Shown: positions 1,480-60,233 of the stretch, one piece after another | Position numbering within the stretch: position 1 is the first letter of the stretch | How the letters are laid out: every line of letters begins with the position of its first letter | IMG/VR virus record: IMGVR_UViG_3300010885_055964 | Span: 32,001 to 96,000 of that record | Strand: one strand, 5' to 3' | DNA length: 64,000 bases | Source: a virus | Translations under genes and position numbers: made by a program | Notes under the pieces: generated by a model | Database searches by the model: none | What the model was told of the DNA's origin: nothing | What the model saw: the letters and a program-made list of their open reading frames with translations, nothing else

Positions 1480-1571
1480 AATAACCTCATTATATATTTA
1501 ATTACAATATAATCAGTCGAAAGAAGACAATCAGATAGTCATAATATATGGAAAAGGCTTCCCCGTACTAG

Positions 1572-2145
1572 TTAAAAACCAAAAATCTGATGAACTTTTT
1601 TGGTTTTAATAAGTCGAGACAGGAACTTACTTATAGTTCCTCTTTAACTCCGACACAAGCACCAACTTTGCCTTTTTGGGGAAGTTTCGTTGGTCGAAGT
1701 GTCGTGTCCTTCTCCTGCCCGTGTCACATTCTGCCAAGAATGTCGAACACTCTATCAGTTTCGGTGCCTCAGGAGATTCGAGTTATTTAGATTCTGTCTA
1801 TTACTGTCAGTCCTTACAATCGTACCTTGGCTTTACATGCTAAGAGCTTTGATGCTGGTACTCATGTCGCAAAACTGATAGACCCCAGGTGGAATCTAAA
1901 CTCGTGACTAATCAACAATTTGACCTGAAGCCTATTGCTTCTCTAGTGTCGGGTGATACTTTTAATCTACAACCTCTTGTTGTAATAGCTATGACAGGTG
2001 GCCCATTACGAAACCCGTTCTATTGCTAGAACAAGAACACCCTAAAGAACCTATCATAACCCATTGACAGTCACGATACCAACCTAACAGCAAACAGAGC
2101 TGTTATAAATGACTTGATTGTCATAACGATACTGGGATATCGTTA
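1572..2145 (-). ncRNA. Candidate large structured non-coding RNA
   Basis: No credible ORF in 1480-2167; more than 10 short perfect helices, crossing long-range pairings, and a GCAA tetraloop on the minus strand. Confidence 0.5.
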
Positions 2146-2167
2146 AAAACTCAAATACTTGTAAGAT

Positions 2168-9838: not shown

Positions 9839-9892
9839 TATCTTTTAGCATATTACTAACCAAATATATATTGATAGAAATAGGAGCCAAAG

Positions 9893-22613: not shown

Positions 22614-24062
22614 ATGGCATATGATCCCAAAGATTATAGTGGTTCTACGCAATTTGTACATTTGCACAATCACACTGTATTTTCTGCTCTGGATGGTGTA
22701 GCCACTCCAGAACAATACGCTAAATTATGCTCTGAGCGTGGGTATCCTGCTATGAGTGCTACTGAGCACGGGCATATGGCATCGGTACCCGACATGTACT
22801 TGGCGTTTAAAAAATATGGAATCAAGTATATTCCAGGATGTGAAATATATTATAATGACTGGGAACCGCATAGACAAACGCTGGAACAAAGCGGAACAAA
22901 GGTCAGATCTCCCGAATGGAGAAAAAATAATCCTGATATTTCTGCTAGGATATCTAGAAACAGACATTTAACTATATTATGTAAAAACGAAGTAGGATAC
23001 CATAATTTATTAAAACTTACTACTCAAGCATATGAGACTGGTTTATTCGGCATGGGTAGGACGCAGTATAACCGAATATGGTTTGAAAAGCTATGTGAGT
23101 ATAAAGAAGGTCTTATTATATTATCAGGCTGCTTAAATGGCCCAATTAGTCATGAACTTAGGCATCGCTTCCTTAAGGATAAAGAAGGCGTCAAGATTTT
23201 CGAACGAGATAAACAACAAGCTTTCAATGATGCTATAAAATATGTAAAGATGTTTAAAAAAGAATTTGGTGATGACTATTATATAGAATTACAGATGCCT
23301 GGTATTGAAGCCATTGATAAGTGGGGCGAAAAAACGGTAAGTGATGATGCTGTCTTCAAGTGGTCAATAGCTATAGCCGATAAATACAATATACCTGTCG
23401 TTTTGACCAATGATTGTCATTATTTAGATCGCAAAGACTTCGAATTGCAAAAGCTTATGATGGCTGTGGCTCAAGAAACAACTATGGATTCTCCCGATTT
23501 ATTTCATGTTAATAGTAGTGAGCAATTCGTACAATCTAGAGCTGAATTGTGGTCTAGATTTAAAAACAATAAATATAGCGAAGGTATAGACGATAGAATA
23601 TTTGAAGTGATGTGTGATAATACATTGAAAATAGCAGAAAAATGCGTAGCATTTGATGTAGACACGTCCCCTAAGATACCTGAAATAGATAATGCTGATG
23701 ATTCTATCAAGCAGATCGTAGCCAAACGCTTAAAGGAAGGTGGATACGATAAAATAACTAAGAGATATTTAATAGACGGAAAAGAAGTGACATACGTTGA
23801 GCAAGCTAAAATAGAATTAAATAGATTTATCGATAAGGGATATTCGAGTTATTTTTTAATAACTCAAGATCTTGTTAACTATGGTAGACAAAGAGGTTGG
23901 CCGTTTAGCCCAAGAGGCAGTGCTGGTGGTTCTTTGGTGTGTTTCTTGATGGGCATCCATACGTTGAATCCTATGTTGTGGGGTCTATCGTTTGATAGGT
24001 TTTTATCACCTAGTAGAGGTGGTTATATGTTAAACGTAGACATGCCAGATCCAATCAGTTGA
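22614..24062 (+). CDS. dnaE: DNA polymerase III alpha, N-terminal part (PHP domain + start of palm)
   Basis: HLHNHTVFSALDG, TEHG, GCE, SGCLNG, TNDCH, PRGSAGGSLV, FDRFLSPSR. Confidence 0.92.
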   Translation: MAYDPKDYSGSTQFVHLHNHTVFSALDGVATPEQYAKLCSERGYPAMSATEHGHMASVPDMYLAFKKYGIKYIPGCEIYYNDWEPHRQTLEQSGTKVRSPEWRKNNPDISARISRNRHLTILCKNEVGYHNLLKLTTQAYETGLFGMGRTQYNRIWFEKLCEYKEGLIILSGCLNGPISHELRHRFLKDKEGVKIFERDKQQAFNDAIKYVKMFKKEFGDDYYIELQMPGIEAIDKWGEKTVSDDAVFKWSIAIADKYNIPVVLTNDCHYLDRKDFELQKLMMAVAQETTMDSPDLFHVNSSEQFVQSRAELWSRFKNNKYSEGIDDRIFEVMCDNTLKIAEKCVAFDVDTSPKIPEIDNADDSIKQIVAKRLKEGGYDKITKRYLIDGKEVTYVEQAKIELNRFIDKGYSSYFLITQDLVNYGRQRGWPFSPRGSAGGSLVCFLMGIHTLNPMLWGLSFDRFLSPSRGGYMLNVDMPDPIS

Positions 24063-24873: not shown

Positions 24874-25293
24874 ATGAACATCAATTATGAGAAGACTGCC
24901 TTTGTGCTGATCAAACCTCCTTCTAAGGTAGTTTCTACACATAAGATCAACAACAGGCATGAGCATATCAAGCTAATCGAGACAGCTAAACATAATGAAT
25001 TGTTGCTATATTATTCCCATGTCATAAAAAAAGGAAATAAATATTACACTGATCAACCGTTAATAGTTGATGAAGAATCAGCTAAAAACTATATCGATAT
25101 GTTCTCTGACAACACAGAGAAGGAGGACAGTGTTGAAGTTCAGCCCAGTGTTCAGGTCGCACCGCCAATCACAGAAGAACGGTCGCTTGTATGTCCTTTT
25201 TGTAATAAAAAAATGTCAAGCACACCGGGGCGGACTTTACACATTAAATCTAAACATCCCGATAAGTTAGATGAGTACAAGGGCATGCTATGA
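24874..25293 (+). CDS. C2H2 zinc-finger protein
   Basis: CPFCNKKMSSTPGRTLHIKSKH; start moved to ATG 24874 (AGGAAG upstream). Confidence 0.7.
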   Translation: MNINYEKTAFVLIKPPSKVVSTHKINNRHEHIKLIETAKHNELLLYYSHVIKKGNKYYTDQPLIVDEESAKNYIDMFSDNTEKEDSVEVQPSVQVAPPITEERSLVCPFCNKKMSSTPGRTLHIKSKHPDKLDEYKGML

Positions 25294-27995
25294 AGAATTG
25301 GGATCAGATAAAGGAATTAGCTTATCGAGTAGTGTCCGATCGTGGTCTAGATAAAAAATATCAAGAACGTTTGGCTTTTGAAATTATTGAAATAGAAAAA
25401 CAAGGTGCTAGTGCTAAGTGGGAAATATATTATAACGATAATAAGAAATTCGCTACCAATCCAAATAATTTAGTGTTACCGTGGTTATTAAATATGGTTA
25501 ATGAGGATCCTATACTTAGTAGGAATGATATTATATTAAACACAGTTAGAGCATCAAAAGTCAAAGAATACCGAGCCAAATATGGGAGTATTCCTTCTGA
25601 TTTTATTAAAGATACAGACATGCCAGACATTGATCTAGATTGCTTACCAGAAGCTAGAGATCCTATTAAAGAATATGCCGCTAAGACATATAGTATGGGT
25701 ATAACGGATGGATATGGTCCTGTCTGTTCTGTAGGAACTTGGCAGACTTATAAATTCAAAAACGCTATTATTGATGCTTGTGCTGGAACAGGATTGGTGG
25801 ATAGAAGTGTAGCTTTCGAGCTGACTACTCAATTGCCAGATGAAGTCGATCAATTAAAAGACGGAGGTGAGGCCGCTTGCAAAAACCGCATTATTGATAA
25901 TGGAGAGGAAAAAGAATGCGGATTTATTCATAGCTTAACCGAATGCCCAAGATGTGGTTCAGCAGACACTGATGCCCCAACCATAGGTAAGTTATTACAA
26001 GAATACGAAATATTAAGAAATTTCGCTTCTACGCATAAAACAGTAGTTGGATATGCTGTTAAACTGGTGGGTCGTGTGCGTAATATGGGCATGCATGCTG
26101 GTGCTCTCATAATAGCAGATAGGTCACTATTCGGTAATATCCCAATGGCTAAAAGCAGCAGCAAAGGCTATTGGGTCAGTATGTGGACAGAAGGCCGCAA
26201 TGCTCAATTATCTAAATTTGGATATAATAAATGGGATATACTTGGTCTCAAAACACTTAAATATATTTTTGAATGTTGTAAATTGATAGAAGCCAATCGC
26301 GGTATATCTTTCGGACCTAACATGGAAGGATGGGACTATAACGATCCCGAAACCGGGATAGCAGGATGGTATATTGATGGAACCGGAAAGAAATGTGATA
26401 TATTACTTAATGACGAACATACCTTAAGATTAGCTAACGAATTAAAAACAGATGGTGTTTTCCAATTCGACACAGATTTAGCTAAACAAATATTATCGAA
26501 TGGTGTACGCAACTTCGATGACTTAATGTTGTTTAATGCTATGGGCCATCCAGGCCCAATGGCTTCGATTCCAGAAGCAGTAGAAAATAGAGATAATTTC
26601 AAGAAAGATTGGCGATCTGCTTTGCCTAAACCTATTTATGAAATATTAAAGTATACATATGGTGTAATCGTTTACCAGGAGCAATTGCAAGCTATTTGGC
26701 AGATAATGGCAGGGTTTACAGCTCCCGAGGCCCAAGAAGCACGTAAGGCTGTAGCCAAAAAATGGACTCATAAACTAAAACCCATAAGAGAAAAATGGCT
26801 TAAGGGTGCGAGCAGGTCTATGAGTGATAAGGATGCAGAAGCATGGTGGGCCAAAATGGAGACATTCGGTCGTTATGCTTTCAATAAAAGCCACGCCGTC
26901 AGTTATTGTTTGGTAGCTCATAGATGTCTTTGGCTCAAAGCTCATTTTACACCAGAATGGTGGGCCGCAGTGATGAGCGATTGCCACCAAGAAAAGCTAG
27001 TAAGATATATGGGGATAGCTAGGTCTGAAAAATGGAGGCCGACCGAAATCACTTATTCTGGGAAACATCGTCCTGCTAAAAAATCGGATGGAGTCATATT
27101 TGATACGCTAAATTTAGAAAATATGACAAGGAGTTTCACTGTAACAGGAGACACGGTCAATCAGGGCTTAATCGGAATAAAAGGTATAGGGGAAACAGCT
27201 GCTGTAAAGTACGAGCGAAAAGGCGTTTATGCGGACATCGACGAGTTTATTACAAAAACAGGTGGAAAAGATAAAGCCGCATGCGAGCGGTTCATAAAAT
27301 TGGGTGCTTTCAAATATATGCAAGGACATAGCAATTCGAAGGCTGTATGGACATGGTATCAATATAAATATTGCAGTGGGAAAGATATTACTGCACTTAG
27401 GACAACTATCAAAGAGCAATTACTAGCTGCAGAAGGATGGAATGATCAGACTATCGAGCAAGAGAGAAAAAGGCAGATCACTGAATACAAGAAGGCTTAT
27501 CCTAATAGAAGGAAAGTTCCTGAAAAGCTAATAAATTGGAAACCGAGTCCAAATGATTCTCGTGATAATGTAATGGCATTGGTAACTGAAGACTTCTCTC
27601 TTGTGGAAGTGCTGCAGTTTGAGAAAGACTATTTAGGGTATTATTTACATTCTCCTTTAGATCTATACGAGTGTAAGGGACAATGCTCTATTGAAACAGC
27701 TAAAGATTATTCTACTAAAGACACATCAACCAGATTAGAAGGAGTTATCGTAAGCGTAGATTATGGTAAGACCAAAAATGATAAAGATTTCGCTAAGATA
27801 ATAATAAGTGATGGTATACAACAGACATTAGTCTTAATGTGGGAGTCAGAAATCAAACATCAAAATCAAGATACATTAAAACCAGGCGTAGGAGTACAAT
27901 TATACGTCAATTATGACCCTACTAGAAATATCTTCTCAGTAGCAAGAAATGAAGCTATTCTTAGACTAAAACGGAAGCAACATGCAACTAGTTAG
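25290..27995 (+). CDS. dnaE: DNA polymerase III alpha, C-terminal part (palm/fingers/HhH/OB)
   Basis: MPDIDLD, GMHAGA, KWDILGL, GVFQF, YQEQL, FGRYAFNKSHAVSY, IKGIG, C-terminal OB fold. Confidence 0.95.
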   Translation: MKNWDQIKELAYRVVSDRGLDKKYQERLAFEIIEIEKQGASAKWEIYYNDNKKFATNPNNLVLPWLLNMVNEDPILSRNDIILNTVRASKVKEYRAKYGSIPSDFIKDTDMPDIDLDCLPEARDPIKEYAAKTYSMGITDGYGPVCSVGTWQTYKFKNAIIDACAGTGLVDRSVAFELTTQLPDEVDQLKDGGEAACKNRIIDNGEEKECGFIHSLTECPRCGSADTDAPTIGKLLQEYEILRNFASTHKTVVGYAVKLVGRVRNMGMHAGALIIADRSLFGNIPMAKSSSKGYWVSMWTEGRNAQLSKFGYNKWDILGLKTLKYIFECCKLIEANRGISFGPNMEGWDYNDPETGIAGWYIDGTGKKCDILLNDEHTLRLANELKTDGVFQFDTDLAKQILSNGVRNFDDLMLFNAMGHPGPMASIPEAVENRDNFKKDWRSALPKPIYEILKYTYGVIVYQEQLQAIWQIMAGFTAPEAQEARKAVAKKWTHKLKPIREKWLKGASRSMSDKDAEAWWAKMETFGRYAFNKSHAVSYCLVAHRCLWLKAHFTPEWWAAVMSDCHQEKLVRYMGIARSEKWRPTEITYSGKHRPAKKSDGVIFDTLNLENMTRSFTVTGDTVNQGLIGIKGIGETAAVKYERKGVYADIDEFITKTGGKDKAACERFIKLGAFKYMQGHSNSKAVWTWYQYKYCSGKDITALRTTIKEQLLAAEGWNDQTIEQERKRQITEYKKAYPNRRKVPEKLINWKPSPNDSRDNVMALVTEDFSLVEVLQFEKDYLGYYLHSPLDLYECKGQCSIETAKDYSTKDTSTRLEGVIVSVDYGKTKNDKDFAKIIISDGIQQTLVLMWESEIKHQNQDTLKPGVGVQLYVNYDPTRNIFSVARNEAILRLKRKQHATS

Positions 27996-60160: not shown

Positions 60161-60233
60161 GCCCCGTTCGTCTAGATGGTCAGGACGCGGCCCTTTCAAG
60201 GCCGAAACGCCGGATCGTTACCGGCACGGGGTA
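60161..60233 (+). tRNA. tRNA-Glu(TTC), CCA not encoded
   Basis: GCCCCGT/ACGGGGT acceptor, CGGCC-ctTTCaa-GGCCG anticodon arm, GCCGG-atcgtta-CCGGC T arm. Confidence 0.9.

Follow-up and report, generated by a model that had tools for sequence, protein, structure and literature searches.

What does a viral genome encode in a gap of 688 nt that lies between two genes and contains no open reading frame (ORF) of note? The gap in question is found at positions 1480-2167 of the window, i.e. the whole stretch of 64,000 nt analyzed here, which corresponds to bases 32001-96000 of a 178-kb IMG/VR virus record (contig G000). The completeness of this record, as given by CheckV, is 49%, from which a phage genome of ~360 kb is estimated. 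A sequence-only reading had described the gap as the longest non-coding one in the genome, dense in helices and apparently pseudoknotted, and had proposed a large RNA transcribed from the minus strand. Indeed, no other internal ORF-free stretch of the 178-kb contig is as long, the gap being surpassed only at the two contig ends, and the absence of an ORF of note holds under translation table 11, table 4, TAG=Q and TAA=Q. The contig ends themselves (1-874 and 177149-178026 of G000, both outside the window) are ORF-free over ~875 nt each, with a G+C content of 55% and 46%, respectively, versus 41% for the genome.

Both genes flanking the gap are located on the minus strand. The upstream one (2168-2683) codes for a RimI-like GNAT acetyltransferase of 171 aa, with matches to Pfam PF00583 (E = 6e-4) and TIGR01575 (E = 3e-11) that are both below the curated cut-offs. 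The downstream one (1-1479, running past the window edge) codes for a protein of 559 aa containing numerous cysteines and collagen-like G-x-x repeats, for which no match was found in Pfam, PHROG, NCBIfam or PDB sequences. This protein has 67 homologues, many of them on contigs of 300-440 kb, and the consensus of the family (alignment A9) shows GxxG repeats. The 559-aa protein itself has two runs of collagen-like G-x-x, and many of its cysteines are conserved; a fibre or another virion protein is its probable identity. Relatives carry extra PKD domains, and the close homologues on L013 (8001-10094, 697 aa) and L014 (1253-3994, 913 aa) are longer than the window's copy; the Hint/Hom_end_hint domains present in these two homologues indicate inteins, and the window's copy is devoid of such domains.

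The wider surroundings of the gap contain genes of replication and recombination, namely SbcD, a helicase, SbcC and a split DNA polymerase. The polymerase is distributed over two plus-strand ORFs (22614-24062 and 25290-27995), ~1.2 kb apart, one matching the N-terminal and the other the C-terminal part of a single PHROG (phrog_405); this arrangement points to a split gene or to the insertion of a mobile element. The sole tRNA of the window, tRNA-Glu at 60161-60233, is situated 58 kb from the gap.

All 13 complementary pairs listed in the sequence-only reading exist in the gap, 12 of them as perfect helices and one as a bulged 13-bp pairing. Folding is better than for dinucleotide shuffles, with z scores of -4.1 for the plus and -4.5 for the minus strand (0 of 20 shuffles were as good). 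Among the covariance models of Rfam 15, none reached its gathering score in the window, and nothing real was found at E<=10 over positions 1400-2250, where the sole matches, SNORD37 and SurA (E ~7), were rejected as noise. Five homologous loci gave no Rfam 15 match at E<=1, and the models of ROOL (RF03087), GOLLD (RF01998) and OLE (RF01071) match neither the window nor the homologous loci. The earlier remark that no RNase P, tmRNA or intron consensus is visible agrees with the lack of a corresponding Rfam match and of a tmRNA call by ARAGORN. In the case of group I and II introns, no Rfam match was obtained at the locus or in the homologous loci, and both ORFs flanking the gap are complete in all homologues, each with its own start and stop, i.e. 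without the interrupted gene expected for an intron. Of the two possibilities raised at the outset, ROOL/GOLLD membership or a new class, the latter holds, since ROOL, GOLLD and every other family of Rfam 15 are unmatched. In the literature, no paper on this RNA family was found; a 2023 survey of IMG/VR covers motifs of 29-151 nt only.

Sigma-70 and terminator sites were no commoner in the gap than in shuffles. Two further candidates were discarded: the direct repeats at 1534-1584 and 2116-2155, considered as insertion scars, are not conserved in the homologues and are therefore treated as chance, and the 16-mer GTACGGGGAAGCCTTT, considered as a repeated genomic motif, occurs once in the contig and is accounted for by hairpin H22 and pairing PK2 (described below).

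Neither the gap nor the 559-aa protein had a BLAST match among 50,697 phage records. Exact-pattern scans with the invariant blocks of the RNA found nothing in viral contigs and four matches in metagenome contigs, all by chance (only a 20-mer aligns); the 24 matches of a 17-mer in genome contigs were likewise all due to chance, as judged by model R1 (see below). Since the DNA searches failed, homologues were sought through the neighboring proteins. The close set (L013, L014, L020, L021, L022 and L050) was obtained via homologues of the 559-aa protein and the GNAT protein; in L023 the stretch is identical to that of the window. All close contigs hold a gap of 590-700 nt at the same place, which can be aligned end to end and shows long invariant blocks and compensating hairpins, and no open reading frame is conserved across the gap homologues. 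The nucleotide identity of the RNA between lineages is 72-81%, on average above the 65-78% of the flanking coding genes, and in a few pairs equal to or slightly below it.

A profile of the 559-aa family led to twelve IMG/VR loci (one of them G001 again) with a protein identity of 37-47%, and homologues are thus available from the 6 contigs of the close set and from 12 IMG/VR jumbo-phage records at a greater distance. Two models were used, R1 for domain 1 (1902-2082) and R2 for domains 2-4 (1641-1901). The window itself scores 185 bits with R1 and 262 bits with R2, and all motifs of the family were located in it. R2 matches every distant record, with E values between 1e-8 and 1e-28, plus G001; the R2 match in G013, on locus L067, is complete. 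R1 matches six of the distant records, and the remaining ones keep the 5' motifs and have a larger, diverged domain 1. One copy of the RNA is detectable per genome. The RNA was not found in G002-G004, which are fragments with 28-31% identity in the neighboring protein, and the RaK2 genome gave no match (best E = 5.5 with R2, none with R1). The known range of the RNA is one clade of uncultured jumbo phages (350-410 kb).

Covariation among homologous intergenic regions, which had been named as the check for such an RNA, is strong in three alignments. For the close set, RNAalifold on six distinct sequences (A5) gives 151 pairs, of which 62 are changed on both sides, compared with 29 +/- 3.6 compensated pairs in shuffles; none of the 500 shuffles reached the observed value. 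Standard pairs fill 93.9% of the cells, versus 34-45% when the 3' partners are slid. For domain 1 (R1, alignment A11, 12 sequences), 44 of the 57 pairs change on both sides, with 93.6% of the cells paired versus 28-41% after sliding, and for domains 2-4 (A12, 16 sequences) both sides change in 55 of 64 pairs; A11 and A12 were fitted to the models, and these pair counts are somewhat inflated. Across the three alignments ~94% of the cells are paired, the corresponding value for slid partners is 28-45%, and the observed values are attained by 0 of 500 shuffles.

The orientation of the RNA can be read from the same data. Transcription from the minus strand, proposed in the earlier reading, is borne out by 92 G-U versus 8 A-C cells on that strand, the ratio being reversed on the other one. 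The consensus energy calculated with alifold is -123 kcal/mol for the minus strand and -96 kcal/mol for the other strand. Together, the G-U/A-C asymmetry and the consensus energies indicate that the RNA is read from the minus strand. The segment from 2150 to 1558 on this strand is thus almost certainly the gene for a structured non-coding RNA of ~600 nt, whose family is absent from Rfam, a conclusion drawn from comparative sequence analysis.

Twelve of the 13 helices of the sequence-only reading are kept in relatives, with compensating changes counted for nine of them; for the hairpin at 1621-1641 and the tip at 1575-1607, recurrence with different stem sequences was judged by inspection. The one helix not kept is the 11-bp pairing 1751-1761/1872-1882, which was rejected: its 5' arm UCAGUUU pairs instead with GGACUGA (1807-1813), forming the nested helix H14. 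In G010, H14 becomes CCGAUGU/GCAUCGG, and similar changes are seen elsewhere; the rejected partner stays CUGAUAGAG. Thus, the crossing of 1751-1761/1872-1882 with 1779-1794/1892-1904 does not stand, as the first of the two pairings is not conserved, and pseudoknots are present elsewhere in the RNA. The pairing 1902-1909/2069-2076, previously regarded as a competing one, actually closes domain 1, and it covaries. The GCAA tetraloop predicted on the minus strand is genuine, with a GNRA loop at hairpin H8 in five of the six close lineages. For helix 3, covariation is limited to the six close sequences, and several distant relatives lack this helix.

The whole structured RNA would measure ~595 nt (1558-2150, minus strand), with the 5' end at ~2150 and the 3' end at 1558 or slightly beyond. 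Conservation and covariation extend over the whole span in the 6 close sequences (A5) and, domain by domain, over 12-16 sequences (A11, A12 and A13). The predicted fold comprises four domains between three small hairpins on the 5' side and one long hairpin on the 3' side, and is locked by three long-range pairings (PK1, PK2 and PK3). In the family, the elements follow one another in the order GTATTT, 5' hairpins, domain 1 with a GGGUGUU junction, AACUCGAA, domains 3 and 4, 3' hairpin, and G-rich tail. All the elements described below are on the minus strand.

The stem of hairpin H2 (2126-2143) covaries, and its loop UCCCAG (2132-2137) provides the 5' strand of PK3. H2 is followed by H3 (2109-2124) and H5 (2085-2105), the latter preceded by a conserved AUAG-type motif; both sides change in four of four pairs of H3 and, in the 15-sequence set, in four of five pairs of H5. 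Domain 1 (1902-2076) is closed by H6 (2062-2076/1902-1917) and contains H7, H8 (2016-2033, GNRA-capped), H9, H10 and H12, as well as PK1. Domain 2 is a long arm (1785-1901) consisting of H13 (1892-1901/1785-1794), H14 (1872-1878/1807-1813) and H15, in which 9 of 10, 6 of 7, and 10 of 11 pairs, respectively, change on both sides (A12). The internal loop CUGGGG (1883-1888) of this domain is the 3' strand of PK3. Domain 2 is the most size-variable part of the family, being shortened in several relatives and, in G001, replaced by a tandem array of a 9-mer.

The most widely conserved block of the family (1712-1784) is formed by the linker AACUCGAA (1777-1784) and domain 3, in which H16 (1770-1775/1712-1717), H17 with its conserved loop AAACUGAUAGAG (1750-1761), and H18 (1726-1743) all covary. 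Domain 4 (1646-1708) comprises H19, with all nine pairs changed on both sides, H20, and a C-rich loop, CUUCCCC (1678-1684), which is the 5' strand of PK2. The 3' part (1563-1641) contains a variable hairpin at 1621-1641 and the AU-rich 3' hairpin H22 (base 1606-1614/1563-1571, tip 1575-1607); both are present in every relative, with differing sequences. The 3' strand of PK2, GGGGAAG (1558-1564), is invariant in the close clade.

The first long-range pairing, PK1, is a junction-junction contact within domain 1, between GGGUGUUCUU (2033-2042) and AAGUAUCACCC (1951-1961), and is compensated as GGGCCGUU/AACGGCCC and GGAUGUU/AAUAUCC. PK2 joins the C-rich loop of domain 4 with GGGGAAG, beyond the long 3' hairpin. 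In distant relatives this pairing takes the form of CUCCACC/GGUGGAG, CCCCAC/GUGGGG, CCUUCCCC/GGGGAAGG or GGCUUCCCC/GGGGGGAGCC, and in G001 that of CCCACC/GGUGGG; the duplex energy is -16.3 kcal/mol with the own partner versus -13.7 kcal/mol with other ones. PK3, formed between the H2 loop and the internal loop of domain 2, is found in relatives as CCCAAA/UUUGGG, CCCAAC/GUUGGG, UUCCAG/CUGGAA and UCUGGC/GCCAGA. The p values for own-versus-other duplexes (0.004 for PK1, < 5e-5 for PK2 with 0 of 20,000 permutations as good, and 0.0008 for PK3) are generous, because the permutation tests ignore sequence relatedness. The compensating events fall in separate lineages.

Upstream of the RNA, the motif GTATTT (2153-2158, minus strand) is located 5-10 nt before the first hairpin and is invariant in 15 of 15 aligned members. 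It is a candidate promoter element or RNA 5' end, and its position does not change whether the upstream gene is co-oriented or divergent. GTATTT is not a general promoter motif of G000, and a genome-wide search gave no support for TATATTAC and AAGTATTT as general promoter motifs. In five lineages (G005, G006, G008/G015, G011 and G013) the upstream gene is divergent and starts within ~50 nt, which argues for a promoter belonging to the RNA; transcription would start from this promoter, marked by the invariant GTATTT. The location downstream of the GNAT gene, emphasized in the earlier reading, is correct for the window's clade and fails as a rule: the GNAT gene upstream of the RNA is confined to the close clade, distant relatives are without it, and in the five lineages just listed the upstream gene is divergent.

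At the opposite end, G-U pairs in the H22 base of relatives, noted by inspection, indicate that transcription continues beyond the U-rich tip and into the G-rich tail. No canonical intrinsic terminator was found after this 3' tail. Outside the RNA, at 1493-1500 (minus strand), TAAATATA is a copy of the motif nAAATATA and a likely promoter of the downstream gene. In G000 this motif stands 10-35 nt before many start codons (for instance at window positions 1493-1500, 2705-2712 and 9861-9868), and the 8-mer CAAATATA is ~11-fold enriched upstream of ORFs (12 seen versus 1.05 expected). The copy before the gene of the 559-aa protein is conserved in close homologues. The motif nAAATATA, reminiscent of T4 late promoters, is likely a phage-specific promoter. 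As the downstream gene has an nAAATATA motif of its own, the RNA is not simply its leader.

The position of the RNA in the genome is also constant. In four of four genomes examined, it lies at most 2 kb from the main gene-orientation switch and at a GC-skew minimum, either global or local. The cumulative GC skew of G000 reaches its global minimum at 34-35 kb, at the RNA locus, and gene orientation changes from minus to plus at 35.9 kb. In the case of G001, the 354-kb contig closes on itself inside the RNA, as the same 9-mer array is found at both of its ends (L107 13942-14090 and L090 1-125), with at least 16 tandem copies of TTGAACCAG at one end, continuing at the other. Once the contig is closed through this terminal tandem repeat, the RNA is placed at the skew minimum and exactly between a minus block of 75 kb and a plus block of 230 kb. 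Local skew minima are observed in G014 (switch at 280.4 kb, RNA at 282.0 kb) and in G012 (switch at 128 kb), where the RNA, at 125.7-126.4 kb, heads a block of 126 kb. The same-strand block behind the RNA extends over at least 35 kb in G000, 230 kb in G001, 126 kb in G012 and 30 kb in G014, and the RNA and the genes downstream are co-oriented in all loci compared. Short repeats related to those of G001 (AGUUGAA; GCUCUUAGCA) are found in the same variable region of other members; the short repeats in the domain 2 region may be protein-binding sites.

As for the function of the RNA, the depth of the tertiary constraint argues that it works as a folded object. Our preferred reading, held tentatively and yet as a serious possibility, is that the RNA acts in trans as a compact folded particle, rather than serving as a message or leader or marking a site on the DNA. 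By analogy with ROOL and GOLLD, such a particle could be a scaffold, a multimer, or the core of a ribozyme or RNP. The location at the head of a gene block and at the GC-skew minimum speaks against the trans-acting particle, as it would fit a role in cis, in transcription or replication.

In size and architecture, ROOL and GOLLD appear to be the closest analogues. ROOL is 581 nt long on average and has three pseudoknots (PMC5737381). Both ROOL and GOLLD are frequently found beside tRNA genes, in phages or prophages (PMC5737381), and ROOL, GOLLD and OLE assemble into homo-oligomers free of protein (PMC12286853, with cryo-EM of ROOL); the phage-borne cages of ROOL and GOLLD are protein-free and their functions are not known (PMC5737381, PMC12286853). 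The new RNA resembles ROOL in its size (~600 versus 581 nt), multistem junctions, three long-range pairings and occurrence in phages. However, it does not match the ROOL model at E<=10, and it is found in one jumbo-phage clade alone, at the gene-orientation switch. The phage context is shared with both ROOL and GOLLD, but the new RNA is not beside tRNA genes, the nearest one being 58 kb away. Like the new RNA, GOLLD is large and ornate; it is often carried by phages, and its first sightings were in metagenomes from lakes. GOLLD is the larger of the two, is often located near tRNAs and assembles into a nanocage, and its model does not match the new RNA.

Phage and bacterial RNAs this large and structurally complex are very rare, and the new family adds one to them. 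It is tractable, being clade-specific and present as a single detectable copy, with a conserved start motif, three tertiary pairings and a fixed place by replication genes. Its genomic position yields concrete functional hypotheses (origin priming, antitermination, free particle), which ROOL and GOLLD have lacked. Models R1 and R2 can be used for annotating the family in metagenomes.

Two models of action in cis are kept alive by the constant placement of the RNA at the start of a gene arm and at the skew minimum. Taken together, they amount to the possible, if doubtful, idea that the RNA, ribozyme-sized and folded, located where the two gene arms diverge, is a control element of the chromosome start, which would either prime replication or reprogram RNA polymerase for read-through over more than 100 kb. 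If true, control at the start point would be a mechanism of a class new to large phage RNAs, and would offer the first handle on the start of replication or transcription in these uncultured giants.

In the first model, which we consider unlikely, the RNA would be a transcription element heading a giant operon, and the nascent transcript would modify or assist RNA polymerase, either by processive antitermination (as HK022 put and the EAR RNAs do) or by a control of read-through exerted at the U-rich 3' hairpin. Such an element would let the long co-oriented gene block behind the RNA be transcribed, and in four of four whole records the RNA is indeed found at most 2 kb inside the start of a long same-strand block, always co-oriented with the downstream genes. 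However, SbcD and GNAT, which belong to the same block, are upstream of the RNA in the window's clade and would gain nothing, and the next gene bears its own promoter-like motif. The U-rich 3' side of the 3' hairpin, with no strong terminator after it, is consistent with read-through, but none of the Rfam families is matched. The known antitermination RNAs are also far smaller and simpler than the present RNA, which counts against this model.

The second model, an origin-associated pre-primer RNA in the manner of ColE1 RNA II, seems to us rather improbable. The RNA II pre-primer, reportedly established in the work of Masukata and Tomizawa, is a folded transcript of ~550-600 nt in which an interaction between G-rich and C-rich segments matters near the 3' end. 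In the new RNA, the purine/G-rich end of the transcript would stay hybridized to the template past the structured part and prime leading-strand synthesis, and hybrid formation would be governed by the C-rich loop through its pairing with the G-rich tail or, alternatively, with the displaced strand of the DNA. The skew minimum or orientation switch at the RNA in G000, G001, G012 and G014 is in line with an origin, but phage GC skew largely tracks gene orientation, so that the minimum may reflect just the transcription switch. The proximity of SbcD, the helicase, SbcC and the DNA polymerase, the one detectable copy per genome, and the at least 16 tandem 9-mers inside the G001 element, which are iteron-like, also favor this model, but in the window's clade no conserved AT-rich unwinding element or initiator-binding repeats were found. 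The covarying 3' strand is G-rich in every member; the G-U pairs in PK2 and in the H22 base are, however, most simply explained as RNA-RNA pairs, and the structural conservation (three tertiary pairings, GNRA loops) is deeper than priming needs. With RNA II (~550 nt in ColE1) the new RNA shares a similar length and a G-rich/C-rich pairing near the 3' end, and it is located at a GC-skew minimum. In contrast, there is no homology between the two, no antisense regulator is seen for the new RNA, and its structure is far more constrained.

Finally, a DNA-level element (packaging site or protein-binding array), the remnant of a protein gene, or inverted repeats arisen by chance would agree with the raw sequence, which shows just inverted repeats, and with both strands folding better than shuffles, but covariation and strand asymmetry make this very unlikely: the G-U asymmetry of one strand is strong, the compensating changes preserve pairs and not sequence, GNRA loops and unpaired junctions that are conserved typify RNA, and no reading frame is conserved.

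A minor feature is visible at the 3' boundary. In the window (1543-1571, minus strand) and in its relatives, a TATAWT-like hexamer follows the G-rich tail in most members. The hexamer sits 14-17 nt after TTAG(G/T)A, which is also the 3' strand of H22, and this spacing corresponds to a weak sigma-70-like geometry, with the PK2 strand falling in the promoter spacer.
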